A stretch of 39,152 nt of DNA from Pseudomonadota bacterium (GCA_018061565.1 JAGOTX010000002.1:1-39152), one strand, 5' to 3'. Shown: positions 8,895 to 24,117, counted from the stretch's first letter. Notes: generated by a model not told the origin, from the sequence alone. Made by a program: numbers and translations.

Positions 8895-10016
8895 TTATGG
8901 AAAAACGAATTGTTTAAATGAACCATAAAAATCCAAAGGCTTTAATAGAGAATCAATCATATGATGCATTTTACGACGCACATTACAACTTATAACCATA
9001 TCAGCATGAAAACTTAATGTTTCAGGGGAAAAATAAGAATCAAGTTCATTTATTTCTCCCTTGAAATAAGCACTTAAGACATGGATATAGCTATTGATCT
9101 TATGTGCAGTGGCAACATTCAGCATACTGCCTAAATAAGGCACTTTAACAATTTGCCCTGGATGTGCCGCCGGATGCGTAAAGAAATAAGAAAAATATTT
9201 AAAAAGAATAGACATATCAAGAGCAGGATTTTCTGTACTAAAAAAACTTTTCAAATAATCATTCACTTTATTAACAGCATAATGACCAAAATTGAAAACT
9301 TCAGGAATAGGATCGTAGTCTTGTTGAAAATTTATAATTTTATCACTCATAGCTTTATTTAATGCGTTTGCAGATAAAACATCCATTACATGGGGGGTTG
9401 CAAAGCATATTGTTTTAATTTTTGCATTATAATCTTTTAAAAATGAATGTGTTCCTAAAATAGCTAAAGCACCGCCTAAACTGTGACCTGTAAAATAAAC
9501 ACTTTCATTTAGAAAACAATCAAAACTTTCCCCTTTATCCAATGCAATTTTCTTCAAAGCATTGGTTAAATTTTTTTGAAGAGAAGAGAAAATTTTTAAC
9601 ATTCCGTTATGATAAAAGTTTTCACGATTTTTATCCCTTGCCCAATTACACCAGAGATCCATCAAAAAATTTGACATATTATCACTGCCACGAAACCCAA
9701 CGTAATATTTATCATCCTTCTTAACGATTGAATAAAATATACCATAGGAACGATCTTCATGCTGATGGATTGATGTATATTGATCTTTTTCATCATTCCA
9801 AAAATAAACACTTTTAGAAAATTTGACAGCATTCATAATGTCTTGTTGATTAAATTCGCCAAAACGCCGCCTTAAACGAACAACAGTTTGGGATGATTTT
9901 GTACTGTCTGTTTCAACAACGGGTTGCAAAGGATTCGACATTGCAGAAGCTGTTATAGCCATTTTTAAAATAAATGCTTTAATTTTAAAAAATCGTGATC
10001 TAAATTTCATAAACAT
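8895..10016 (-). CDS. secreted class-3 (fungal-type) lipase family protein
   Basis: It has an N-terminal signal-like segment (KIKAFILKMAITASAMS). The nucleophile elbow FTGHSLGGALA sits in a Lipase_3-like context (YVGFRGSDN... upstream). The true start may be the ATG 2 codons downstream. Confidence 0.7.
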   Translation of the reverse strand: MFMKFRSRFFKIKAFILKMAITASAMSNPLQPVVETDSTKSSQTVVRLRRRFGEFNQQDIMNAVKFSKSVYFWNDEKDQYTSIHQHEDRSYGIFYSIVKKDDKYYVGFRGSDNMSNFLMDLWCNWARDKNRENFYHNGMLKIFSSLQKNLTNALKKIALDKGESFDCFLNESVYFTGHSLGGALAILGTHSFLKDYNAKIKTICFATPHVMDVLSANALNKAMSDKIINFQQDYDPIPEVFNFGHYAVNKVNDYLKSFFSTENPALDMSILFKYFSYFFTHPAAHPGQIVKVPYLGSMLNVATAHKINSYIHVLSAYFKGEINELDSYFSPETLSFHADMVISCNVRRKMHHMIDSLLKPLDFYGSFKQFVFP

Positions 10017-12829: not shown

Positions 12830-13348
12830 ATGAAAAAAGTTCTATCTTTAACCTTAAGCTTAACAGTTAGTTGCTTTTGTGATGTTCAAAAAAATAAGAT
12901 TGTTCAAGAGGCAATCGTTAAAAAAGAGGATGGGAAAATTGCATTTTATCCAGAACACTTAAATTCAAACCCAAAAGCCTTTAAAACTGCTGTTGATATT
13001 TTTTTTGACCGTTATAAAAAAGAATCCTTAGATGGCTTTATTGCCTTATCTGCAACGTCATTTTCTGTTGCTAGTTGCCTTGGATATTTGTTAAATATAC
13101 CCGTTTATTTAGCATCCCCAAACAAACCGCATGTTATGTTTGATGTAAAAGAAAAATCAAAATACATTATTGTGGATGACTTGCTTGATAAGCCTACATT
13201 GATTGAAAATATTATTCATCAATTAGAAGAAAAAAAAGCCTATGTTATGGAAATTTGCACCCTTACAGAAAACTTAAAAATCAAAACACGCGATAAAATA
13301 GCAGCGCAAGTAATGAGCATTTTTGTGTTAAGGGAAACACAAAATTAA
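12830..13348 (+). CDS. adenine phosphoribosyltransferase-like protein with hydrophobic N-terminal leader and degenerate PRPP loop
   Basis: NPKAFKTAVDIFFDRYKKESLDGFIALSATSFSVASCLGYLLNIPVYLASPNKP aligns by eye with Apt (DPKAY..SIDLLVERYK...ITKVVGTEARGF.FGAPVA..LGVGFVPVRKPGK). The PRPP motif VLVVDDLLATGGT is reduced to YIIVDDLLDKPTL. The N-terminus MKKVLSLTLSLTVSCF looks like a signal peptide. Confidence 0.5.
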   Translation: MKKVLSLTLSLTVSCFCDVQKNKIVQEAIVKKEDGKIAFYPEHLNSNPKAFKTAVDIFFDRYKKESLDGFIALSATSFSVASCLGYLLNIPVYLASPNKPHVMFDVKEKSKYIIVDDLLDKPTLIENIIHQLEEKKAYVMEICTLTENLKIKTRDKIAAQVMSIFVLRETQN

Positions 13349-14565
13349 GCTGCATTATGTGTTGATGGAAGCGCTGATGAAAGCATACGAAGCAGCATTT
13401 GAATATTACTTGGAGAGCGCGATAGATCCTCTAAAATAGCGGGAAGGCTTTTATTTTCCCAACCAACGATTAATTCAATAAGAGAAGGCGTTGGACTATG
13501 TGGATCTAAATTTTGCAAAAAGAGGCCTATGTCCCTTAAAGCCTGATAAGCCTCACGACGGCCAGTGATGTTCATAACATCATCGTGCAGATCATGTGTT
13601 TGACGTGTTTGTGAAGATATAACCTTTTCTGGAGAATCAACAATGTTTATAACGGCTTCATCAAAAGTGGCATTTTTTGTTTCTTCAAAATTTTGCGTTT
13701 CTAATGATTGGTGAATATAATTTCCTGTTTGTTCAGGTGCTGATTCGTCATACTCAAGCGGTAAAGAACGTTGTTCTAACGTGGTTTTTGAAATACGGCT
13801 AATATCGTCCAAACAAGTTCTAATACGGTTAAACCCTGTTGCTTGCTTTCCAAGCTTTTGGCCTAAAAACGTAAAGAAGGATTTAATTTCTTCTAATGAC
13901 CGCTGGCTATAATAGTAATTTTTTTGAAGATAATGAACATCCGTTGTTGCTAACGATTTTTTAAAAGCAGAAAGCGTTAGCTTGCCTTTATTTTCAGCAT
14001 CAGAAATTTGCTTTGCATAGTCTGTAGAACGCTTTGCAATGGTTTCTGTATTAAGTGCTAAAATCCAATCCGAAAGAGTAAGCGTTGCACGTTCTTGCAT
14101 TAAAGGGTGATACGTTAATGGTGTTATCATAATACGTGTTGCAAATTGTTCATTCATCCATTCAAGTAAGTGGATTCTTGCATCAAAATCGCCGTCTTCT
14201 TGTTGTGGATAAATGTTATTCCAATAGGTATTAATCATTTGATTACAAAGCTTAATGCCCCTATAAAATCCTTTAATGCCATCTAAAACAATCCAACTTT
14301 CTGTAAGCCAACCTACGATTTGGATGTCTTTAGTTCTAAATTCAAGTAACTGACTTGATAACTGTTCAACAAGGGCAAAGTCTGCTTTTTTAAGGTCACG
14401 GACCCAAATTCCTTGAGAAAGTGAATCATCATCTTCACGTCTTGCCTCTTTAATATCGTCGTAGATTGGTTCATACCTTAAGTATTCACCAACGCCATTT
14501 TCAGTTGCAAGGGGGGCGATCAACCGTTCATCGTTGATCTCTACACGCTTTTTAGATGCTCTCAT
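13345..14565 (-). CDS. tssA: T6SS TssA (ImpA N-terminal domain protein)
   Basis: The ImpA_N signature GVGEYLRYEPIYDDIKEARREDDD lies near the N-terminus. I prefer the ATG at 14565 (MRASKK...), which is preceded by GGAGGATAAT and lies 1 nt after the tssM stop. The listed TTG start is at 14577. Confidence 0.8.
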   Translation of the reverse strand: MRASKKRVEINDERLIAPLATENGVGEYLRYEPIYDDIKEARREDDDSLSQGIWVRDLKKADFALVEQLSSQLLEFRTKDIQIVGWLTESWIVLDGIKGFYRGIKLCNQMINTYWNNIYPQQEDGDFDARIHLLEWMNEQFATRIMITPLTYHPLMQERATLTLSDWILALNTETIAKRSTDYAKQISDAENKGKLTLSAFKKSLATTDVHYLQKNYYYSQRSLEEIKSFFTFLGQKLGKQATGFNRIRTCLDDISRISKTTLEQRSLPLEYDESAPEQTGNYIHQSLETQNFEETKNATFDEAVINIVDSPEKVISSQTRQTHDLHDDVMNITGRREAYQALRDIGLFLQNLDPHSPTPSLIELIVGWENKSLPAILEDLSRSPSNIQMLLRMLSSALPSTHNAA

Positions 14566-14566
14566 A

Positions 14567-17500
14567 TTATCCTCCAATGCCTAAAGCTTTTGCTGTATCT
14601 GCTGCAAGGCTTGATCCACTACTGCTGTTGTTTGTGTTACCATCTGTTGTTGGTGTTGAAGAAGATGAGGACCCATTACTTGAACTGTTATTTGAGGCAT
14701 TATTTCCAAAACCAGGGAGAAGTTTGCTTATTTCATTACTGCTGTTCTTTAAGATATCCACCGGTGATTGTGGTTGAGGGGGGGAGGTACTACTTGATGT
14801 CGGTTGACCACCAGTATTGCCACCAGTATTGCCGCCATTATTATCACCACTATTATTACCGTTACTATTATTATTTTGATTATTATTAGAATTATTGTTT
14901 TTTTGGTCATTCATATTTGGACTAACAACGCCACTACCACCGGATGTATTCATATTTGAATAATCACTCATTCCGACATCTGGAATGGGGGCATTCGTTC
15001 CTTCATCAAAAGACTTTGGCGTGTAAACTTGAGGTTCAACAAGTCCATCCGCTAGAGCAGCTTGATTTAAATATCCCTTAATGTCGCCTGAAACGTTTGG
15101 TGCATCTGCTGGAAATTCTGGCATGCGCATTTCTTTACCAACGGCTTTTCCTTTTGTGGAAGGAACAGATAACGTAACGCGATCAAAAACAGATGTTTTA
15201 CCTTGTGCTATTGGAATATTAAAGCCCAAAACATAGTATTTACTATCACCTGTTAGTTCTGTATTAACAGACGCTTTTAAAGCTTTAAGTAGCGCCCAAC
15301 GACCACCATATGAAAGGGTTGCTGTTGAACCTTCAGCCCTATAATTTGGCGTGTTTGCATCCGCAACGGGTTTTGTATCCCCATCACTATACTTAAAGCC
15401 AAATACAACCGGTTGACCAACATACCAACGAGCCGTTTTTGATTGTTTGTCTATGCGTGTATCACCAACCATAAGGTAGCCTTCAACCAAACGATCGGCA
15501 TTTGCTTCCCTATCGCGATTAACTCTAAAATCTGCTTTGACATCAAAACTAATGGTATCACCATCTGCTTTACCAGAAATAAAGGGTTCAATAAATGATC
15601 GAACATGGGCCATGTTTTCTAAAAAGTTGACAAGGGGTTTTGCTGATTCACCAAGTTGATAGACTTGATCTAAGATTTTGTCTGGTGTTTTACCAAATTC
15701 ATCCATCTTAGCGAAGAATTCACGTAAAGCTTCTGGTTCTACTTCGTCTTTTGCGGCATTTACATCCAAAACAAAGGGGAACTTACCACGTATTTTGTCG
15801 TTATAAATTTGAAGCAGTTTTTCGTAATTACTAATACCAACTTGACGTTTTAAAACTTCTGCACGCCCTAAAAGGCCTTTTTTAAGACCACGAATAATTT
15901 CAGAAAAATAATCGCCTGTTGCTGTTTTAACGTCTGTCACATTAATAAGTGTTGTAACATTTTCAGCTGTATAGGTATTCATTGTTTTTAAAATAAATTC
16001 TTCCAATAATGAATATGTACTGCCGGCTTGTTTTGCTTCGCCTGATTTAAATTGTTCAACAATTCTGCGCCATCTATTAAGAAGGACTTTATCGCCTTGA
16101 GATTCCATCATAACTGGGGAACTTAAAAACACAACGATGGATTCTGCATAACCAACAAGGCGCTTCATTTGAGCTTTTTGAACATCCATATAGGCTTGAA
16201 GATCTTGTTGATCCCTTACGGCAAAGCCATTAAGCGCTGAATTGATTTTACCGTCCCACCAACTAAAACGTGAGTCTTTAACCGTAAAGGGGCTGAGCGT
16301 TCCTTGTAGTTTTTCAACTTGAGAAAGCATCCAAAAATAGCTGTTGCCAAGCAAATTTCTAAGTTCTGTAAAGCTAAAGCCAACAGTGCCTTGATTCATG
16401 AGTTGTAAAAGTTTGACAAACTTTGGACCAACGTTTTGAATATCATTAATCATGCTGGATAAAATTTCTTCTGCTTGCAATTTATCTGACATGGTTGTTG
16501 GAACTGAAACAAAGTTTTGTGCTTGAGCGACAAGATCCACAATATTTGATTGCAAGCTTTCACGCGCGATAATACGCAAGTTTTCTTGAATCATTTTGGG
16601 GAAGTTTTCAACATGTTTGCTTAAAAAGTCATCAAAACTTTTTGCCATTTCAAACGCAATGTCAATTCGATTAGCATCCCAACGAAGCATTTTACCGGAT
16701 GGTACTTGGTAGTTAAAGGATGTATGCGTTGCCTCAGACATATAGGGTTCGTTAAAGAGCATTTCTAAAGAAGACGCAAGATCTAAAATACCTTGTGAAT
16801 ATTTTGTTTCCATCTTCTGTTTTTGCATTGGTGCTATTGGAAGTTTTGCCTTAAAGCCAACAAGCGTTAAATTAAGGGTTTTAAGTTGTTGCTTAAAGTT
16901 TTCAAAACCAATTGCTGTTTGATCAATTAAAAATTGACTTACTTTTTTACCAAATAAGCGTTCATTTGCATCTAAAGAATCAAAAAGTTCATTAAATTCT
17001 TTATCTGGGTTAAAATATTCAGCGTCCATCCATGTTTTACCGGCTTCGCCAAGGCAACGAACACCTTCTGCAAGTTCAAGTGAAAATTGCCTAAAGCTTT
17101 TAAGATCTGGCGCCCTTTTATTATGCGTGTTAGAAAGCTTGGCTAGAAAGTCATTCACTCGCCCTGGCAAACTGTTTACACTTTCAGAATTAAACATGAC
17201 ATTTAAATAATTTTGATATAAAACGCCAAGGGTTTCCCTTGCCATGAATTGATAAGGTGTTAAATCAATACTTGGAAAGACCATGTTTTCAAGCAAATTT
17301 CGAATGGATTTATAATTTTCGATAAACTGTTGTGGCAGTCTTGAATTAAATGTAAAGGCGACTAAATCGTCCAAATCTCTGGCGTCTGATGCGGATCTTA
17401 AGTTATTAAATTTAAAGACCATTTCCTCTAGCTTATTAAGGTCTTGAACATATGATTTAACAAGTCCCCATTCTTTACCCGTTGTTGGTTTTAAAAGCAA

Positions 17501-19264
17501 TGCCAAAGATTCAGATTGATCCATTTGTGTTGGCCTTAAATTTAAAAGACCACGCGCTTTAATTAAAAGATCAATATAAATTGATTTTATAATAATCTGC
17601 TGATAGGACACTTTAAGCGTTTCATTCATGTCACGACGGATAGGGCTAAACCAAGAAGCAGGAACAAAGACCGAAAAGAACGATGTATTTTGCATACGTT
17701 CCATCATATCCATAAATTCCCTTGCATACGTTTCAAACACAAGCGTTGATTGACTTGGTTGATTAATTTGAATTTTTTGCATTTCATAAAGCAATGTGTT
17801 CATTTTTTGGAGCACTGGCATCATATAAGTGCGCTGTTCTAAAAAGCGTTCATACGCATTATAAAGCCCTATAGAACCGATAACGGCAAACGCCGCTGTA
17901 CTTATTTTTGCAAGATTAATACCGCGATTAATGGATAAAATTCTGCCCGATAGTGGTTTTGACAAACCCGCTTCATAAAAGATTTTTTCATTAATCAAAT
18001 CATCAATAAAGAAAATTTTACGCCGCCCTGGGGACAACATATCACGCGTTTCATCCTGAACGGATAAAGGTTCTTCTAGGTTTTGGGTAATTGCATCAAT
18101 GTTTAAAGATTTAAAACCTTCAATACCACTGTCGCCGACAAAATAAATACCACGTAAAAGGGGCGATTCTTGATACGCATCTGTTTTAAAAATGCTGGAA
18201 ACATAAATAGATAAACGTTCTTTAATGGTTAAAAGTTCAACAGGGAACACAAATATACCATCACGCGTTTCGTGTGGTTTATTGGACGCTAAAATATCTG
18301 TTCTAAGGTCATTAAGATTCGCCATAACACTTGAAAACGCTTCATCCACCCATTTGGATGAAAAGGCAATGGTTGGATTGTAAGGTGATGACCAACCAAA
18401 AATATTTTGCCTATTTTGACTTGGAATTTCTGCACAAACACTTTGAAATCCTGGAATAACATCGCATTTTGTAACAACGACATAAACAGGTAAACGAAGC
18501 CCCATATTGTTTTGAGCAGCTTGAAGTTTATGCGCTAAAAAATTAGCACGTTCGTTAATTTCTTCAATAGATAAGCGGTACTTACCGTAAAGTTCTTCTG
18601 CAGAGATTGTAAAAATAATACCATTTATAGGACGTGCAGCACGATAACGAGATAAAAGAATGAGAAGAGATCTCCACCCATTTTCATTTGAACCTGTACC
18701 ACGGGCGTTAATAAGGTATTTTCCCTTAATATCTAAAACAACGCCACGGTTTAAAAACCACCAACGACAATCGGCCCGTTCTGCTTGTTCACCAAAGCTT
18801 GGCGCACCGACCGGAAGATTAAGGTTTGAACCTTCCATCAATCCTGTTTTGCCAGATTCTTCAGACCCAACCAGTAAATACCACGGAAGACGATATTTAT
18901 AATTGGCAGAATTGAGCGAACTTCTTAAAAAATCGAGCGCATTAAAGAATGATTTACTTAAATCACTCACCTGAAGGTAACCACGTTTAACAAGAAACTC
19001 ACTAACTGGACCACCAAGAGGGGGTAAATTATGGGATCTCGCTTTAACGGCAGCAGCATCACTTGCATTGGGATCATCTGCAATAAGAGGTGACTCTGCC
19101 TTTTTTTTAGCACCTTGACGAAGACTTATAACAACCATAATGATTGTTACAATCATGATGAACACACCTAAAATTATCAGCACCAAAATAAGCGTTGGTA
19201 GCGTTGATAATTTTGCAAAATAATCGCCTATTTTTGTAAAGAATGAATTAATAAAATGTATCAT
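14567..19264 (-). CDS. tssM: T6SS membrane-complex protein TssM (IcmF family), oversized, with low-complexity C-terminal tail
   Basis: IcmF hallmarks are present: LPWYLLVGSEESGKTGLM (Walker A), CRWWFLNRGVVLDIKGKY, INGIIFTISAEEL and PVYVVVTKCDVIPGF. There is an N-terminal hydrophobic segment, a second TM segment near aa ~450, and a long periplasmic region. It is 1565 aa versus ~1100-1200 for typical TssM. Its ATG overlaps the tssL stop (ATGA). Confidence 0.9.
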   Translation of the reverse strand: MIHFINSFFTKIGDYFAKLSTLPTLILVLIILGVFIMIVTIIMVVISLRQGAKKKAESPLIADDPNASDAAAVKARSHNLPPLGGPVSEFLVKRGYLQVSDLSKSFFNALDFLRSSLNSANYKYRLPWYLLVGSEESGKTGLMEGSNLNLPVGAPSFGEQAERADCRWWFLNRGVVLDIKGKYLINARGTGSNENGWRSLLILLSRYRAARPINGIIFTISAEELYGKYRLSIEEINERANFLAHKLQAAQNNMGLRLPVYVVVTKCDVIPGFQSVCAEIPSQNRQNIFGWSSPYNPTIAFSSKWVDEAFSSVMANLNDLRTDILASNKPHETRDGIFVFPVELLTIKERLSIYVSSIFKTDAYQESPLLRGIYFVGDSGIEGFKSLNIDAITQNLEEPLSVQDETRDMLSPGRRKIFFIDDLINEKIFYEAGLSKPLSGRILSINRGINLAKISTAAFAVIGSIGLYNAYERFLEQRTYMMPVLQKMNTLLYEMQKIQINQPSQSTLVFETYAREFMDMMERMQNTSFFSVFVPASWFSPIRRDMNETLKVSYQQIIIKSIYIDLLIKARGLLNLRPTQMDQSESLALLLKPTTGKEWGLVKSYVQDLNKLEEMVFKFNNLRSASDARDLDDLVAFTFNSRLPQQFIENYKSIRNLLENMVFPSIDLTPYQFMARETLGVLYQNYLNVMFNSESVNSLPGRVNDFLAKLSNTHNKRAPDLKSFRQFSLELAEGVRCLGEAGKTWMDAEYFNPDKEFNELFDSLDANERLFGKKVSQFLIDQTAIGFENFKQQLKTLNLTLVGFKAKLPIAPMQKQKMETKYSQGILDLASSLEMLFNEPYMSEATHTSFNYQVPSGKMLRWDANRIDIAFEMAKSFDDFLSKHVENFPKMIQENLRIIARESLQSNIVDLVAQAQNFVSVPTTMSDKLQAEEILSSMINDIQNVGPKFVKLLQLMNQGTVGFSFTELRNLLGNSYFWMLSQVEKLQGTLSPFTVKDSRFSWWDGKINSALNGFAVRDQQDLQAYMDVQKAQMKRLVGYAESIVVFLSSPVMMESQGDKVLLNRWRRIVEQFKSGEAKQAGSTYSLLEEFILKTMNTYTAENVTTLINVTDVKTATGDYFSEIIRGLKKGLLGRAEVLKRQVGISNYEKLLQIYNDKIRGKFPFVLDVNAAKDEVEPEALREFFAKMDEFGKTPDKILDQVYQLGESAKPLVNFLENMAHVRSFIEPFISGKADGDTISFDVKADFRVNRDREANADRLVEGYLMVGDTRIDKQSKTARWYVGQPVVFGFKYSDGDTKPVADANTPNYRAEGSTATLSYGGRWALLKALKASVNTELTGDSKYYVLGFNIPIAQGKTSVFDRVTLSVPSTKGKAVGKEMRMPEFPADAPNVSGDIKGYLNQAALADGLVEPQVYTPKSFDEGTNAPIPDVGMSDYSNMNTSGGSGVVSPNMNDQKNNNSNNNQNNNSNGNNSGDNNGGNTGGNTGGQPTSSSTSPPQPQSPVDILKNSSNEISKLLPGFGNNASNNSSSNGSSSSSTPTTDGNTNNSSSGSSLAADTAKALGIGG
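14570..14974 (-). other. Asn/Ser/Gly/Thr-rich low-complexity C-terminal tail of TssM (last 135 aa)
   Basis: The direct translation is GMSDYSNMNTSGGSG...NNNSNNNQNNNSNGNNSGDNNGGNTGGNTGGQPTSSSTSPPQPQSP...NNASNNSSSNGSSSSSTPTTDGNTNNSSSGSS...LGIGG. It contains a perfect 12-nt tandem duplication at 14809..14832. Confidence 0.85.
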
Positions 19265-20040
19265 GTTACGGTACTTTTTTGCAGTTGACGGTATATTTCA
19301 TTTAAAGCCACATTCATTTCTGATGCGAGTTTATGCCAGACGATGTAACTGATAAAAACATAAACAACGAGAACACTTAAAAGAGTGCTAACCCATGTTT
19401 TTAAATCAGGAAGCCCTTTGCCTGGATGTTCTGAAATTGTGCAAGAATAAGGATCTTCATTCAGGCGTTGTTTACCTGGATAATAAAGATCATTATGGCG
19501 CCCTTTAATGAGAAGATAGAGCTGATCCCTATACCAATTGAGTTGTTCTTGATCGGTTCCTTCGTTATAACGCCCTTTAAAACCTAAAGAAAGGGCCGTT
19601 AAATAAACTTGAGCAAGTTCTGAACGTGCGGGATCACTTGATTGTAAAAGAGCATCTAACCGTTTAAAAAATTGTTCACCAGCAACTTGTGTTTGAAAGA
19701 CTTGCCCTTCTAGCAATATTTTTCGCCAAACTTTGGTACCGCTCCATTCCATATTTAAAAAGACTTCATCTGCCAATGAAACCATGACATATTGCGCGTC
19801 CCTAAAATAGCTAGCGGTAATACCACTTGTGTTTTTTGACGCTTGAAGCGAATGAACTTCTAACACTTGATGAAGTTTTTTTTGAATTTCTTGAATGACA
19901 GATTCGATATGATTTGCGTCCTCATTAGGGCCAACTTCATTTTCAAATGTTCGCAGAGCTTTTTCTTTTTGGCGCAAAACTTCATAGTAGAACTCTTGAA
20001 AGTTTTGGACAAATATAGATGTATTGAATGTATAGATCAT
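19261..20040 (-). CDS. tssL: T6SS TssL (DotU family), single C-terminal TM, no peptidoglycan-binding extension
   Basis: It has a DotU-like core (...YVMVSLADEVFLNMEWSGTKVWRKILLE...), a C-terminal TM helix (VSTLLSVLVVYVFISYIVW) and only ~25 aa after it. AAGGGG lies upstream of the ATG. Confidence 0.8.
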   Translation of the reverse strand: MIYTFNTSIFVQNFQEFYYEVLRQKEKALRTFENEVGPNEDANHIESVIQEIQKKLHQVLEVHSLQASKNTSGITASYFRDAQYVMVSLADEVFLNMEWSGTKVWRKILLEGQVFQTQVAGEQFFKRLDALLQSSDPARSELAQVYLTALSLGFKGRYNEGTDQEQLNWYRDQLYLLIKGRHNDLYYPGKQRLNEDPYSCTISEHPGKGLPDLKTWVSTLLSVLVVYVFISYIVWHKLASEMNVALNEIYRQLQKSTVT

Positions 20041-20056
20041 TAATTTTTACCCCTTA

Positions 20057-21406
20057 CTAGGATCCCTTTTTGACATAAAGGACAATTTCTGTTGGGCGCC
20101 TTTCTGGATGGTCTGCTGGGTTAAAGATATTGATATTTTGATCAAAACGAATGTAATTGGGATCGACTTCAACCTCAATCAAAATAACGCCCCTTGTTGG
20201 CATAAGTTGATACATATCCCCTTCTCTTACAATAGAGCGCCTTGCACCTGTAATACGCTTATTGCGTACGCTATCAATAGCGTCATCGCTTGCGATAATA
20301 GCATCGCTCACCCAATCGTTAAGCTGAAGTTCTGACATGGTTTTTGGAATACGAATACCAAGATAGAGGCGATCATTCTTATAAGCTTCATGCATGCGAA
20401 GCGTAAAGAGACGATCCCTTTGATTAAAGAGGAAAGACGCATAAGCTTGTTCAATGGTTTGAAGCATTGCGTGAATATGGTCTATAACAGGTATAAAACA
20501 ACTCATAATATCTTGATGGTTATAAATTGGCATAACCGGTGGTAAATGAGATAGCCTTAATGTTGAAAGATTACCAGCAATAAGGCAAAGCGCTTCAAAC
20601 AAATGATGTGGATGAGCTTTTCGTCCGTGCGTAACAGATTCTAAATAAGGAAGAGAAACAACCAGTGGGCGAAGCAATGCTGCCGTTTCACCAGCAAGAG
20701 GGGTTCCTGCTTGACTTTGCCATTTATCAGAGAGATAACTTGCCTTTTCACGCAGTTTTTGAATGAGTTCTATGCAGGATTTATGAACAAGATTTTCTTC
20801 TGAAATATAAAAACAAGGGGCCATATAGTTTGTTTGAACAAAGGACTCATCACGGTAAGCAACCTTCATTAAGGGAATGGAAAATGTTCTAGGGGGGGGG
20901 GTTGTTCCAACGGCTAAATGCACACGTGGGAAAAGACGTGGGATCCTCACAATATTATCAGGCGCTGTGTCGTCTTTCACTTCATTCCCTTCAACAGACC
21001 AATAACGGGCAAATTCACCAACAATGGGTGATGCATGTTCATGGCGTTGAGGAAGAGCGAGCTGAATGGTAAGAACATTGGAGCTACTTCCCATAAGGTC
21101 ATTTTTATAAGGTTTTAAGTCAAATTCTAAAGGTGGAATATCTGCCTGTGCAATATTATATGAGATAATAAGCCCGTCTGGCATAATGGCTTCAAGCTCT
21201 GTAATGCGAATTAAACCATCTGGAAGGACGATAGGATCCAGCTTAAAAGAGCGAATACCCCAATGAAATTCTGACACCAACGACATGTGGTGGATTAGAA
21301 CCTGATGATGACGCAGATCCGATTGTTGAAAATGGTGGGGGGATAGCAACATGCCTTCATGCCACTGAATCTGGGGAGCTATAAGGGATTTCGTTGTAAC
21401 AGCCAT
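20057..21406 (-). CDS. tssK: T6SS baseplate protein TssK (ImpJ/VasE family)
   Basis: The N-terminus IQWHEGMLLSPHHFQQSDLRHHQ matches the TssK signature (W.EG..L.PQHFQQ.D). The length of 449 aa is typical. Confidence 0.9.
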   Translation of the reverse strand: MAVTTKSLIAPQIQWHEGMLLSPHHFQQSDLRHHQVLIHHMSLVSEFHWGIRSFKLDPIVLPDGLIRITELEAIMPDGLIISYNIAQADIPPLEFDLKPYKNDLMGSSSNVLTIQLALPQRHEHASPIVGEFARYWSVEGNEVKDDTAPDNIVRIPRLFPRVHLAVGTTPPPRTFSIPLMKVAYRDESFVQTNYMAPCFYISEENLVHKSCIELIQKLREKASYLSDKWQSQAGTPLAGETAALLRPLVVSLPYLESVTHGRKAHPHHLFEALCLIAGNLSTLRLSHLPPVMPIYNHQDIMSCFIPVIDHIHAMLQTIEQAYASFLFNQRDRLFTLRMHEAYKNDRLYLGIRIPKTMSELQLNDWVSDAIIASDDAIDSVRNKRITGARRSIVREGDMYQLMPTRGVILIEVEVDPNYIRFDQNINIFNPADHPERRPTEIVLYVKKGS

Positions 21407-21444
21407 AGGTCAACATCCAAAAAAAATGAAACTTTCTCTCTTCC

Positions 21445-21473
21445 ATTATACATAAGCGCCATGGCATTACAAA
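21445..21473 (-). promoter_or_regulatory. putative sigma70-type promoter upstream of tssK
   Basis: On the minus strand the sequence reads TTTGTA-N17-TATAAT, with TG immediately upstream of the -10. The -35 is at 21473..21468 and the -10 at 21450..21445. It lies in the 161-nt gap between the small secreted-protein gene and tssK. This is pattern-only evidence. Confidence 0.3.
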
Positions 21474-21567
21474 CGATTTTGGTTAATTTTTAGTTAAATT
21501 TTATATGAATGTATCTTCTGTGGATAAAAAACAATCAGAAAAAGGCAAGAATGATCAAATTAGGCGA

Positions 21568-22098
21568 TTAATCTTTCTTTTTTCCTTCTTTACTTTTTTC
21601 AATGAGTGGTTTTTTTTCGTCATTATTATCCCAATCTTTTTTTAAATATCCCAAAGACTTATTGCTTTCCCTGGAATCAGAAGATGATTCTGAATCAGAT
21701 CTTTGAAATAAATTTAAAATTGGATCATACCAATGTGTTTCTATAATGACTGGTGGAGATACAAGAGAACAATTTGTTATTGTATAATAGTTTTTTAAAT
21801 GCTCTGTGAACTCACCCCATCCTTGAATCCCTAAATAAAAATTATTTAAAGCTCTAACACAATACCCACAACGAATATTTTCATTTAATTTCTTCATTAG
21901 AGATTCTAGGGTTTCTGTTTTGGAATCAACCAAATACTGTACAATAAGTCTTGATTCTGATACTGTTACTTCATTATAAGGCGTATTCATAAATTTATTT
22001 TCTAACATCAACGCTTGTTCTTTAGATAAGGGGCAAACTTGCAACTCAGCAGAAAACAGAAGCTGTAACATTGCACTCAACGCAATAATATATTTCAT
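21568..22098 (-). CDS. small secreted protein, paralog A (unknown family) in the tssJ position
   Basis: I prefer the ATG at 22098 (MKYIIALSAMLQLLFSA..., signal-peptide-like), preceded by AGGAGAGAAAA. It is 176 aa. Its C-terminal ~55 aa are near-identical to the neighbouring gene at 22292..22819. Confidence 0.6.
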   Translation of the reverse strand: MKYIIALSAMLQLLFSAELQVCPLSKEQALMLENKFMNTPYNEVTVSESRLIVQYLVDSKTETLESLMKKLNENIRCGYCVRALNNFYLGIQGWGEFTEHLKNYYTITNCSLVSPPVIIETHWYDPILNLFQRSDSESSSDSRESNKSLGYLKKDWDNNDEKKPLIEKSKEGKKKD

Positions 22099-22257
22099 TT
22101 TTTCTCTCCTTCTATTATTGTTCATACATTCTAAGTTGCTCTTCTAAATCATGTTCTAAATCTTTTTTAAAACCATCTAATGTCCAAACTTTTTTTAGCT
22201 TTTCAGATAAGTAAGATCCTACACTTTTAATAAAGGTTTTAAATTCTTAATTTGTGG

Positions 22258-22277
22258 ATTCCTGCTTTCGCAGGAAT
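22258..22277. repeat. perfect 8-bp stem palindrome with 4-nt loop (ATTCCTGC-TTTC-GCAGGAAT), REP-like element or intercistronic hairpin
   Basis: Read directly from the sequence. On the transcribed (minus) strand the loop is GAAA (GNRA type). It lies 14 nt downstream of the paralog B stop. A T-run follows only on the plus strand. Confidence 0.5.
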
Positions 22278-22291
22278 GACGTTTTTTTGGA

Positions 22292-22819
22292 TTAATCTTT
22301 CTTTTTTTCTGCTTTACTTTTTTTAATGAAGGGTTCTTTTTCTGGATTATTATCTAAATCTTTTTTTAAATACCCCAAAGACCTATCACTTTTTCTGGAA
22401 TCAGAAGAGGATTCTGAATCAGATCTTTGAAATAAATTTAAAATTGGATCATACCAATGTTTTTCTATAATTATGGGAGCTGTTGAACGGCAAATAAGAG
22501 ATGTAGACGTACGATCATAATAATTTTTAAGGTAATCAACTGCCTGTATATAAGATTGTCCCTGAGCAAATTTTCGTAAGATATTGGGAGTATAACCTCT
22601 AGCCTTACCTTCTTGGAATTTATCCATTAATGATTCATACGTTTCTGTTTCTGTAGTGATAAGATATTGAACAATACGCCGAGCATCTCCAACAGAAACA
22701 TCTTTGTAGGGTGTTTTTCTAAACCGCTCCTCAAGTAGTAATATTTGCTGTTCTGAAAAAACATTCTCAGATCCAAAAACAACACAGACAATGCCACAAA
22801 ATAGAATAATATACTTCAT
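22292..22819 (-). CDS. small secreted protein, paralog B (unknown family)
   Basis: I prefer the ATG at 22819 (MKYIILFCGIVCVVFGSENV...), preceded by GGGAGAAAAC. It is 175 aa. It shares TPY..V.V...R.IVQYL...TET.ESLM...YLKNYY...HWYDPILNLFQRSDSESSSDSR.S..SLGYLKKD.DNN.EK.P.I.KSK..KKKD with paralog A. Confidence 0.6.
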   Translation of the reverse strand: MKYIILFCGIVCVVFGSENVFSEQQILLLEERFRKTPYKDVSVGDARRIVQYLITTETETYESLMDKFQEGKARGYTPNILRKFAQGQSYIQAVDYLKNYYDRTSTSLICRSTAPIIIEKHWYDPILNLFQRSDSESSSDSRKSDRSLGYLKKDLDNNPEKEPFIKKSKAEKKKD

Positions 22820-22830
22820 TGTTTTCTCCC

Positions 22831-24117
22831 TTAAACATAATTCTTTATTTTTTTTTCCATCATAATATAACATTTTTTTTGAGCAGAAGAATAACTCCAA
22901 CACTTTTTGAAAGTATCTACTATATAGATGCTCATAGTTTTTATATAATTTTTGCGATTTTCGTTTTCTTGAAGAATTTTTGATTTCTCGTACAATTTTT
23001 GAATCATATCGTCTGGAACTTTTTCAATATCGTCATTATTCAAAAGGTAAAAAATGGAGTGAAAAGAGGCACTAATAGCATCGAAAATAAAAATGGTTAA
23101 AGTTGATATAAAGGTAATAATAGACAAAGGGATGATTGTTGGCGATAATTGGTTTGACTGTTTTGTTTTATAAGCCTGAGCTGTTATATTAAAAAAAGTT
23201 TCATCTTCGCTTTTAAAAGACAAATCCATTGTTATATTGCTTAAAATAGTGGTGTTTAATATATTAAGAGATGAATTTGTCCAAGAAACTAACCCTATAT
23301 TTTCTATGACTACTGCAGTTGGCGTTAATTGATAAACTAAAACAAACACACATAGGCCACTTAAGAAAGCTACAATTGGCTTTGTAATAACAACAAAACG
23401 ATCGAACCTATCCGTGGACCAATTTTTTGACTCTGCATCAAGAAATGTATTTTTTGTAAAATCTAATAACGCTTCTTCTTCAATACTTTTTCTCCAAGCG
23501 TTTAATATATCGATATCTTTCCTGTTAGCCTTGTCATCAGAGCATAAATTGGTTAGTTTATTAAAAACAACATCAACCATACCTCGGTCTTGGCAACTAT
23601 CTATTGATAGTATTCCTTCAAAATATATATCTTTTACAGAATTTCCTTCAAAAAAAACTTCAGATCTCCATTTTGCCCTATCATCTTTAGATTTTTCGTC
23701 ATAGAGAAATTTTTCTGCAATGTCAAAAAAATCAGAAGAACTCCCAGAGCTGAACACTGGAGCCCAAAGATAACTTTTGCTATATTTTTTTCCTTTTTTT
23801 GTACCAAAAATACCAGAGAACATCGATGGATCTATAAACTGTTCTCTTACTTTCTTAGCATGCACATCATCCAACTCTCTCCCTTCAACAAAAGCATCAT
23901 AAATTATTTGATAAGGATTAGCAGGGTCTTTTTGAACATCTATGACATCTAAAGAAATTCTTACAACTCTTTCTGTCTGATCTAAAATGAAAGGATTTTG
24001 TCCTCTCTCATTTTCAGATCCAAGTATAATTGAAAAAGAAAGAATTATAAGAAACACTAACGATTTCACACAAAACTTAAACACTGCACACCATCCTGAT
24101 TTTAAACTTCTTTTCAT
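22831..24117 (-). CDS. hypothetical multi-pass membrane protein (428 aa), first gene of the minus-strand block containing tssKLMA
   Basis: It has an N-terminal signal/anchor (LVFLIILSFSIILG), a ~210-aa soluble region, at least two strongly hydrophobic helices (PIVAFLSGLCVFVLVYQL; IIPLSIITFISTLTIFIFDAISASF) and a charged C-terminus. I recognise no family signature. Confidence 0.55.
   Translation of the reverse strand: MKRSLKSGWCAVFKFCVKSLVFLIILSFSIILGSENERGQNPFILDQTERVVRISLDVIDVQKDPANPYQIIYDAFVEGRELDDVHAKKVREQFIDPSMFSGIFGTKKGKKYSKSYLWAPVFSSGSSSDFFDIAEKFLYDEKSKDDRAKWRSEVFFEGNSVKDIYFEGILSIDSCQDRGMVDVVFNKLTNLCSDDKANRKDIDILNAWRKSIEEEALLDFTKNTFLDAESKNWSTDRFDRFVVITKPIVAFLSGLCVFVLVYQLTPTAVVIENIGLVSWTNSSLNILNTTILSNITMDLSFKSEDETFFNITAQAYKTKQSNQLSPTIIPLSIITFISTLTIFIFDAISASFHSIFYLLNNDDIEKVPDDMIQKLYEKSKILQENENRKNYIKTMSIYIVDTFKKCWSYSSAQKKCYIMMEKKIKNYV

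Follow-up and report, generated by a model that had tools for sequence, protein, structure and literature searches.

A tssK-tssL-tssM-tssA block in an uncultured Holosporales-like alphaproteobacterium as the probable membrane-complex operon of a split H3-type T6SS

In Holosporales, the genes of the T6SS are scattered over small groups, tssK-L-M-A, tssB-C-hcp, tssG-F and ywqK-vgrG (Midha et al. 2021, PMC8163844), and T6SS encoded in such scattered operons are conserved in almost all members. In Bodocaedibacter, CPBP_00933-00937 correspond to a lipoprotein gene, tssK, tssL, tssM and tssA, CPBP_00985-987 to tssB, tssC and an hcp-like gene, 00125-126 to tssF and tssG, CPBP_00258 to tssE, and 00352-355 to ywqK and vgrG, with RNA-seq reads on all of these genes (PMC8163844 supplement). 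There are no functional data on the T6SS of any Holosporales member (review PMC11909080). The H3 system of Pseudomonas aeruginosa consists of two operons, the left one being lip3-hsiJ3/tssK3-dotU3/tssL3-icmF3/tssM3-hsiA3/tssA3-sfa3 (Sana et al. 2013, PMC3804575).

The window analysed here is a 39-kb stretch of DNA (39,152 nucleotides) from an uncultured Holosporales-like alphaproteobacterium from wastewater. At 13345-21406 on its minus strand, tssK, tssL, tssM and tssA are tightly packed, with a 4-nt overlap between tssL and tssM and a 1-nt gap between tssM and tssA, as a first-pass annotation of the sequence had described. The same junction spacing is kept in the nearest relative, the MAG GCA_977971875.1. 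The block and its surroundings are as follows.

20057..21406, minus strand: tssK, 449 aa (Pfam T6SS_VasE PF05936, 2.4e-42)
19261..20040, minus strand: tssL, 259 aa (Pfam DotU PF09850, 7e-30)
14567..19264, minus strand: tssM, 1565 aa (Pfam IcmF-related_N PF14331, 7.6e-54)
13345..14565, minus strand: tssA, 406 aa from the ATG at 14565 (Pfam ImpA_N PF06812, 2.5e-33)
One flank: housekeeping genes typA, obg, dacC, mreB, transaldolase and hda
Other flank: housekeeping genes for an RNB-domain exoribonuclease (RNase II/R type), lrp, ntrYX, dusB, parAB, gidB and accBC

The four gene calls of the first-pass annotation were borne out, TssK, TssL and TssA scoring above NCBIfam cut-offs and TssM being recognized by Pfam. 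TssK joins the baseplate, of which it is a subunit, to the membrane complex; the protein encoded here scored 225.7 bits against TIGR03353 (cut-off 100) and matches the TssK chains 5y0e and 5m30 in the PDB. TssL (94.1 bits against TIGR03349, cut-off 89.95) is a short-form DotU/TssL inner-membrane anchor without an OmpA domain, and a hydrophobic segment at its C-terminus is visible in the sequence as a TM helix. TssA contains the ImpA_N domain and a C-terminal domain, with 225.8 bits against TIGR03363 (cut-off 160.85) and a match to the TssA structure 6hs5 (2e-27). These three proteins classify as core components of a T6SS-i. TssM combines TM helices at its N-terminus and a Walker A motif (GSEESGKT) with a large periplasmic domain. 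Its score against TIGR03348 (242 bits) is under the cut-off of 388, the match being confined to residues 20-505, and BLASTP aligned residues 123-721 (4e-28) and 1000-1352 (6e-19) with P. aeruginosa TssM3. No IcmF_C match was found in TssM, nor any sequence-level match in the PDB with a single sequence or a profile; its periplasmic domain is unrecognised by standard TssM models, and the same holds for the TssM of Azospirillum.

No further T6SS genes lie within 13-15 kb on either side of the block, and both the absence of other T6SS genes from the 39 kb and the housekeeping character of the flanks had been correctly noted in the first pass. Searches by tblastn with Azospirillum, P. aeruginosa H3 and Holosporales queries found no TssB, TssC, Hcp, TssE, TssF, TssG or ClpV elsewhere in the window, those with P. 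aeruginosa H3 queries found no VgrG, DUF4280 (PAAR-like), YwqK or Lip3, and an HMM search of the window found no member of the Lip3/TssJ-like family described below. An OmpA or TagL-like protein was likewise not detected in the window; this observation of the first-pass annotation stands. A short TssL lacking a peptidoglycan-binding domain is, however, usual in the H3-type lineage and no mark of derivation. In four wastewater runs, independent contigs cover the block and its flank junctions at ≥99% identity, and the block is therefore not an assembly chimera.

The 161-nt gap upstream of tssK contains one regulatory candidate.

21445..21472, minus strand: candidate sigma-70-like promoter TTGTAA-16-TATAAT, by consensus match

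Taken together, the results of a promoter and terminator scan did not exceed chance, and sigma-70-like sites were no commoner in this region than the shuffled expectation. The window encodes a single sigma-54 activator, ntrX, paired with ntrY. One metatranscriptome contig falls within tssK, a hint of transcription.

With a probability of about 90%, we conclude that the four genes form the operon for the membrane complex and assembly of a complete H3-type T6SS-i, the rest of which is encoded at other sites of the chromosome. The close homologues of TssK are all from MAGs of Holosporales, Finniella or Paracaedibacteraceae; the TssK of the closest relative (HEEMFOPI_00076) is 91% identical, an exact-protein look-up with the window's TssK gave no match, and a scan of genome contigs gave a best identity of 77%. 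In GCA_977971875.1, tssK-L-M-A lie on contig 1 between flanks unlike those of the window, and contig 58 carries, among housekeeping genes, tssB-tssC and a 181-aa ORF that jackhmmer linked to P. aeruginosa Hcp3 (5.6e-12). An isolated tssK-L-M-A block in the window and a tssB-tssC-hcp block in the nearest relative MAG reproduce these two parts of the split Holosporales T6SS. The K-L-M(-A) block is isolated in ~40 Holosporales-like loci, its flanks differing every time, and tssB/C occur within 10 kb in none of 80 genome loci of Holosporales-like MAGs. Throughout this T6SS lineage the gene order is K-L-M-A. Directly next to it, loci of Desulfobacterales, Acidobacteriota and Gemmatimonadales have tssB-C-(hcp)-E-F; Azospirillum, like the Desulfobacterales a free-living relative, and a P. 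aeruginosa H3 cluster have tssB-C-hcp-E-F-G-clpV in divergent orientation.

Metagenome contigs were also scanned for Holosporales TssC with an AT-biased back-translation of the motif PTE....DRRE.E, of which 119 of 120 matches were true TssC; the same scan of viral contigs gave 0 matches, and the TssC of Finniella was not located by exact look-up. In runs X1 and X2 the window has a depth of 5-9, and tssC/tssB-like contigs occur at depths of 6.8 and 7.5. This same-sample evidence is partial, since these contigs are only ~80% identical at the nucleotide level to the Holosporales tssBC reference (metagenome locus L129). The window's own genome probably contains tssB, tssC, hcp and the remaining T6SS genes, judging from a related but distinct species (dS > 1) and from depth-matched contigs of a mixed community.

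Such an arrangement probably arose from an ancestral lip3/tssJ-tssK-tssL-tssM-tssA operon that formed its own transcription unit beside a tssB-tssC-hcp-tssE-F-G-clpV operon. Rearrangement in a host-associated lineage would have parted the two while leaving each intact, and the Lip3/TssJ lipoprotein gene would have been lost from the operon in the window's clade. TssK would connect the baseplate to an envelope-spanning membrane complex of TssL and TssM, with TssA as the assembly and priming factor. Together with the remaining proteins, the four probably assemble into a contractile injection machine, which would presumably deliver effectors into a eukaryotic host or into competitors.

Whether the block is instead the remnant of a T6SS cluster on its way out of a reduced genome has to be weighed against the state of the genes themselves. 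Holospora species without any T6SS (review PMC11909080), the disappearance of lip3 from the operon and the parting of tssK-tssL from tssM/tssA in Finniella would all agree with ongoing loss. However, the four ORFs are full length and free of stops and frameshifts, each has a dN/dS of 0.04-0.07 against the nearest relative at dS > 1, and no inactivating variants were found in tssKLMA in four metagenomes; the overlapping and 1-nt junctions are kept in the relative, and the block is conserved in dozens of MAGs. The decay that the first-pass annotation had named as the mark of a relic is thus not seen, and we consider a relic very unlikely. The first pass had also offered two readings of its own, an apparatus distributed over the genome of a host-associated alphaproteobacterium and a derived or repurposed envelope module. 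Only the former gained support, from the relative's separate tssB-tssC-hcp, from Midha et al. and from strong purifying selection.

As a stand-alone module, a TssJ-less TssK/TssL/TssM/TssA assembly would function with no sheath, tube or spike, perhaps as a new kind of channel or anchor, and the lack of other T6SS genes nearby, the missing lip3/tssJ and the unusual TssM tail of 176 aa are compatible with this. It is nevertheless extremely unlikely: the closest relative that has this block carries tssB-tssC-hcp elsewhere, the complete Bodocaedibacter genome holds all parts and transcribes them, depth-matched tssBC contigs are present in the same samples, and we know of no role for TssK or TssA beyond baseplate and sheath assembly. 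A type IVB (Dot/Icm) system using IcmF/DotU homologues was considered because TssM and TssL have domains in common with IcmF and DotU and TssL weakly matches the T4BSS IcmH/DotU model NF038228. That match (37.3 bits) is under the cut-off of 50, whereas TssK, TssA and TssL pass T6SS models, and no dot/icm genes were found near the block. TssK and TssA are, to our knowledge, specific to T6SS; their assignment refutes the type IVB reading, to which we give practically no credence. The split H3-type T6SS thus remains the preferred reading, and "orphan", the term applied to the block in the first pass, is too strong: the block matches an H3-type left operon in its K-L-M-A order, and the scattered arrangement had already been published.

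In this T6SS lineage tssJ normally precedes tssK, and its absence here, claimed in the first pass, was confirmed. We searched for it with a Lip3/TssJ-like family. The identity of this family is based on a lipobox, on a location upstream of tssK and on a 1e-44 match to the ORF that precedes tssK3, where Sana et al. 2013 (PMC3804575) place lip3. The family has no Pfam match, only one member scores against TIGR03352, below threshold, and its profile retrieved no TssJ structure from the PDB by sequence. Within 10 kb of tssK the profile detected no homologue of the outer-membrane lipoprotein TssJ in the window or the ~40 related loci, and no named match to the nearest relative MAG, to Finniella or to Paracaedibacter came from a database search with it. 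This canonical core part is therefore either missing or too diverged to detect, and a copy elsewhere in the genome is also conceivable. The place upstream of tssK is taken by three other genes.

21568..22125, minus strand: lineage-specific small secreted protein, paralogue 1; probable start M10, ~176 aa
22292..22819, minus strand: small secreted protein, paralogue 2, a tandem duplication of paralogue 1
22831..24117, minus strand: 428-aa membrane protein with a putative T6SS link only and no detectable family (Pfam, NCBIfam)

None of the three (21568-24117) matches Pfam or NCBIfam. The paralogues repeat with a 724-nt period and share 55% amino acid identity and a 90% identical 182-nt 3' stretch. 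A search of 1.84 billion proteins gave only 11 representative clusters for paralogue 1, which, as the first-pass annotation had suspected of the genes in this slot, is unrelated to lip3/tssJ, although it sits where that gene lies in related clusters. We rejected the 185/203-aa proteins as a diverged TssJ, since hhalign of paralogue 1 against the Lip3-like profile gave a probability of 0.2% and both proteins are absent beside tssK in the closest relative; their AlphaFold model is all-helical and of low confidence (pLDDT 43). The 428-aa membrane protein has no homologue in any related locus compared.

The loci without a Lip3/TssJ-like gene share a second feature, at the C-terminus of TssM.

14570..15097, minus strand: TssM C-terminal low-complexity extension, 176 aa after PEFPADAP, 68% G/S/N/T/Q/P

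Where a Lip3/TssJ-like gene is kept, the tail measures 4-25 aa in 21 of 22 loci and 52 aa in Azospirillum. Where the gene is lacking, 45-176 aa follow PxFPxxAP, and the tail is long and of low complexity in every such locus. A strain variant in run X3 has a 12-nt deletion at 14808, within the tail. It is conceivable, if on balance unlikely, that most Holosporales, this organism included, run an H3-type T6SS without TssJ/Lip3 in which a long disordered TssM tail takes over outer-membrane anchoring or oligomerisation; after the Gly-Ser linker of Acinetobacter TssM, for which such compensation has been proposed, this would be a second and independent example. In a weaker variant, the secreted paralogues upstream of tssK may be new accessory parts or effectors.

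The split arrangement itself is already known, and our main finding is that one more uncultured Holosporales lineage falls into the published pattern of scattered small T6SS operons. For annotation, an isolated tssKLMA block in a Holosporales genome should not be scored as incomplete or degenerate. The loss of the Lip3/TssJ-like gene across much of the group, tied to the TssM C-terminal extension, merits modest follow-up, and bears on how the membrane complexes of TssJ-less T6SS reach the outer membrane.

Among TssJ-less systems, those of Acinetobacter (Kandolo et al. 2023, PMC10564176) and Agrobacterium (PMC3702570) resemble the window in having no detectable TssJ homologue. They belong to a different T6SS lineage and are encoded in one cluster; no counterpart of a TsmK-like partner was identified in the window. 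[quoted passage not shown] Outside the Holosporales-like group, the closest TssK in the plasmid collection (34%) belongs to the chromid T6SS of Azospirillum brasilense (NZ_CP059450). This system has the same K-L-M-A order and a TssM likewise recognised in its N-terminal part only; unlike the window, it has the whole cluster at one locus, where a lipoprotein gene stands upstream of tssK and clpV-tssG-F-E-hcp-C-B lies ~9 kb off on the other strand.

The left operon of P. aeruginosa H3 shares with the window the K-L-M-A order, the tight spacing and a short TssL (252 aa in TssL3), and is transcriptionally separate from the sheath operon. BLASTP matches extend to TssK (27%, 2e-46), TssA (27%, 2e-38), TssL (1e-13) and the N- and C-terminal regions of TssM, TssM3 having 1271 aa and no long tail. 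The window lacks lip3 and the sigma-54 activator sfa3, and the counterpart of the right operon, adjacent in H3, is probably placed elsewhere in the genome. Bodocaedibacter, Caedibacter and Paracaedimonas have a ~200-aa Lip3/TssJ-like lipoprotein gene directly upstream of tssK, which the window and ~40 Holosporales-like loci lack; compared with Bodocaedibacter, the window has the two lineage-specific paralogous secreted proteins in its place. Bodocaedibacter TssM is also long (1423 aa), and that of the window is ~140 aa longer because of its low-complexity tail. In Ca. Bodocaedibacter vickermanii, Paracaedibacteraceae and Caedimonadaceae, as in the window, the same four genes stand in the same order, isolated among housekeeping genes, and the sheath and tube genes of these bacteria form a separate tssB-tssC-hcp block.

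The features referred to below are as follows.

13345-14565 (from its ATG), minus strand: tssA, 406 aa, Pfam ImpA_N
14567-19264, minus strand: tssM, 1565 aa, Pfam IcmF-related_N
14570-15097, minus strand: low-complexity tail of TssM (residues 1390-1565), 176 aa, 68% G/S/N/T/Q/P
19261-20040, minus strand: tssL, 259 aa, Pfam DotU
20057-21406, minus strand: tssK, 449 aa, Pfam T6SS_VasE
21568-22125 and 22292-22819, minus strand: tandem duplicates encoding small secreted protein paralogues, 724-nt period, signal peptides
One flank, housekeeping: comEC, thiamine pyrophosphokinase, typA, obg, D-Ala-D-Ala carboxypeptidase and mreB; also class 3 lipase, class II aldolase, transaldolase and hda
Other flank, housekeeping: glyoxalase, RNB-domain exoribonuclease (RNase II/R type), lrp, ntrY/ntrX and dusB; also parB/parA, gidB, phaC and accC/accB

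TssK, TssA and TssL pass their NCBIfam equivalog cut-offs, while TssM scores under its own and is matched only over the N-terminal 500 residues. For window TssA and TssK, sequence searches reach solved structures of their own families; for TssM they gave no match. The 4-nt tssL/tssM overlap and the 1-nt tssM/tssA gap are identical in the nearest relative (MAG GCA_977971875.1), and the block, together with its two flank junctions, is found at ≥99% identity on independent contigs of four wastewater metagenomes. The tightly packed four-gene block described in the first-pass annotation is thus borne out by Pfam, NCBIfam, tblastn and independent contigs. A tblastn search with the full T6SS sets of Azospirillum, P. 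aeruginosa H3-T6SS (H3) and Holosporales detected no further T6SS genes in the 39 kb. T6SS lipase effectors are found among class 3 lipases, and a 373-aa protein with a class 3 lipase domain (PF01764, 1e-20; 8895-10016, minus strand), encoded among the housekeeping genes, is an effector candidate.

The closest TssK proteins, from 91% down to 35% identity, come exclusively from Holosporales, Ca. Finniella, Paracaedibacteraceae and unclassified alphaproteobacterial MAGs, and the window sequence occurs in wastewater and activated-sludge runs but not in the genome and protein collections searched. Several contigs with Holosporales-type tssKLM (L009, L015, L022, L034 and L052) bear titles such as Verrucomicrobiales, Patescibacteria or Pelagibacter, probably through mislabelling or contamination of the bins. 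A 708-aa "eukaryotic" gene model with TssK and DotU domains (P0027, eukprot), 50% identical to window TssK, most likely derives from a contig of an endosymbiont within protist data, the gene caller having merged tssK and tssL.

A TssK profile scan of 185,579 species genomes yielded 80 loci, on which tblastn was then run. Isolated K-L-M(-A) genes occur in about 40 low-GC Holosporales-like loci, with different housekeeping neighbours each time. In Desulfobacterales, Acidobacteriota, Holophagales and Gemmatimonadales MAGs, tssB-tssC-(hcp)-tssE-tssF directly follow K-L-M-A. The nearest TssK outside the Holosporales-like group in a plasmid collection (34% identity) is on Azospirillum chromids, where tssK-tssL-tssM-tssA is one part of a complete cluster whose other strand carries clpV-tssG-tssF-tssE-hcp-tssC-tssB. 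A plasmid copy of H3 in P. aeruginosa encodes a hypothetical lipoprotein, tssK, tssL, a 1271-aa membrane subunit, tssA and a sigma-54 activator, divergent from tssB-tssC-hcp-tssE-F-G-clpV...vgrG-ywqK, in keeping with the "left" (lip3 ... hsiA3, sfa3) and "right" operons of Sana et al. 2013 (PMC3804575). Because the same unit is present in H3, and its products align with all four window proteins, including the C-terminal region of TssM, the block appears from alignment to be an intact ancestral operon rather than a fragment.

The first-pass annotation had proposed either an apparatus split across the genome or a derived, repurposed module. Whether the block is an orphan is answered directly by Midha et al., whose supplementary table gives T6SS locus tags and RNA-seq counts for a closed Bodocaedibacter genome (PMC8163844); a genome-wide split in this group is thus already published. 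An AT-biased motif served to retrieve Holosporales-type TssC genes from metagenome contigs, and a profile built from these genes was run against the protein database. Its matches include HEEMFOPI_00311 from GCA_977971875.1, on a different contig from the 91%-identical TssK (HEEMFOPI_00076). This second contig carries tssB, tssC and a 181-aa ORF, flanked by housekeeping genes, and jackhmmer links the ORF to annotated P. aeruginosa Hcp3 (5.6e-12). The split alternative therefore holds in the nearest relative, and repurposing, given this tssB-tssC-hcp-like locus, is not supported. In wastewater runs X1 and X2 the window has a depth of 5-9, and contigs at depths of 6.8 and 7.5 match a Holosporales tssB-tssC locus at ~80% nucleotide identity, consistent with a tssBC locus belonging to the window organism, though in a mixed community this is no proof. 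The annotation had also raised decay, which would make the block a relic. This is not supported: dN/dS against the nearest relative is 0.050 (tssK), 0.053 (tssL), 0.073 (tssM) and 0.042 (tssA), at dS >1; neither internal stops in the four genes compared with this relative nor disrupting variants in the four metagenomes were seen. A single 258-nt contig from an activated-sludge metatranscriptome falls inside tssK and hints weakly at transcription. Purifying selection on the block is strong, and the block travels as a unit through rearranged genomes.

Several Holosporales-like contigs carry a tssB-tssC fusion, a single ORF of 642-650 aa with VipA and VipB domains (L094 405-2333; P0172, P0183, P0206, P0217, P0218, P0227, P0231, P0232, P0235 and P0239), so one sublineage may build its sheath from single-chain protomers.

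In 35 of the 80 loci, the gene immediately upstream of tssK encodes a lipobox lipoprotein of 150-260 aa. The family as a whole includes L046 9338-9949, L083 8597-9232, L210 14462-14938 and genes at 30 further loci. Wherever the block adjoins other T6SS genes the lipoprotein gene is present, except at L033 (clpV only); Caedibacter sp. and C. varicaedens also have it. The family profile finds, at 1e-44, the ORF that directly precedes tssK3 in the H3 cluster of P. aeruginosa, at the position of the gene named lip3 by Sana et al. 2013 (PMC3804575), and Bodocaedibacter CPBP_00933 (615 nt), upstream of tssK in the Midha et al. supplement (PMC8163844), is likewise Lip3-like. Pfam, T6SS-SciN included, does not recognise the family, and the NCBIfam TssJ model scores one member, under threshold; P. 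aeruginosa and Paracaedimonas records label the gene "hypothetical". The family was not found in the window or in 40 Holosporales-like loci with ≥700 nt of sequence ahead of tssK. A database profile search gave 138 members, of which those with a name belong to Paracaedimonas and Caedibacter; Finniella, Paracaedibacter and the nearest relative contributed no named member. The annotation was therefore right that tssJ is missing, and its absence is a clade-wide trait, already reported in general terms in a Holosporales review (PMC11909080). Poor model recognition may underlie the reviews' claim of TssJ-less Holosporales, despite Caedibacter, Paracaedimonas and Bodocaedibacter having the gene.

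As the annotation noted, unrelated-looking genes fill the tssJ slot: the two paralogues, which share the C-terminus HWYDPILNLFQRSDSESSSDS...KKKD, and a gene for a 428-aa membrane protein, with a consensus promoter-like site between them and tssK. None matches a Pfam or NCBIfam family, and a Lip3-like identity was rejected, as they are unrelated to that profile. No counterparts lie beside tssK in the closest relative, and among 1.84 billion representative proteins only 11 clusters are related to the paralogue family. There is no evidence that these genes are T6SS parts; the paralogues are possible effectors or secreted proteins particular to this lineage.

Absence of the lipoprotein gene goes with a longer C-terminus of TssM. 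In 21 of 22 lipoprotein-bearing loci TssM ends 4-25 aa past the conserved PxFPxxAP motif (52 aa in Azospirillum, where the Lip3-like gene is present), versus 45-176 aa in 12 of 13 lipoprotein-less loci (Mann-Whitney p = 2e-6, kinship ignored). Since the lipoprotein-less loci all fall within one or a few clades, a single event may account for the association. In the Holosporales clade from termite guts the motif has been lost, and the tails, ~90-125 aa long, are rich in acidic residues and lysine. A strain variant in run X3 has a 12-nt in-frame deletion at 14808, within the tail, so tail length differs within populations. Of these findings, only the association of the TssM tail with loss of the Lip3/TssJ-like gene goes beyond the publications consulted. 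Agrobacterium has a functional T6SS without TssJ (PMC3702570), as does Acinetobacter, for which a C-terminal Gly-Ser linker in TssM, together with TsmK, has been proposed as compensation (PMC10564176). The tail of window TssM, also in a TssJ-less setting, parallels this linker, a suggestive analogy between the Holosporales and Acinetobacter systems.
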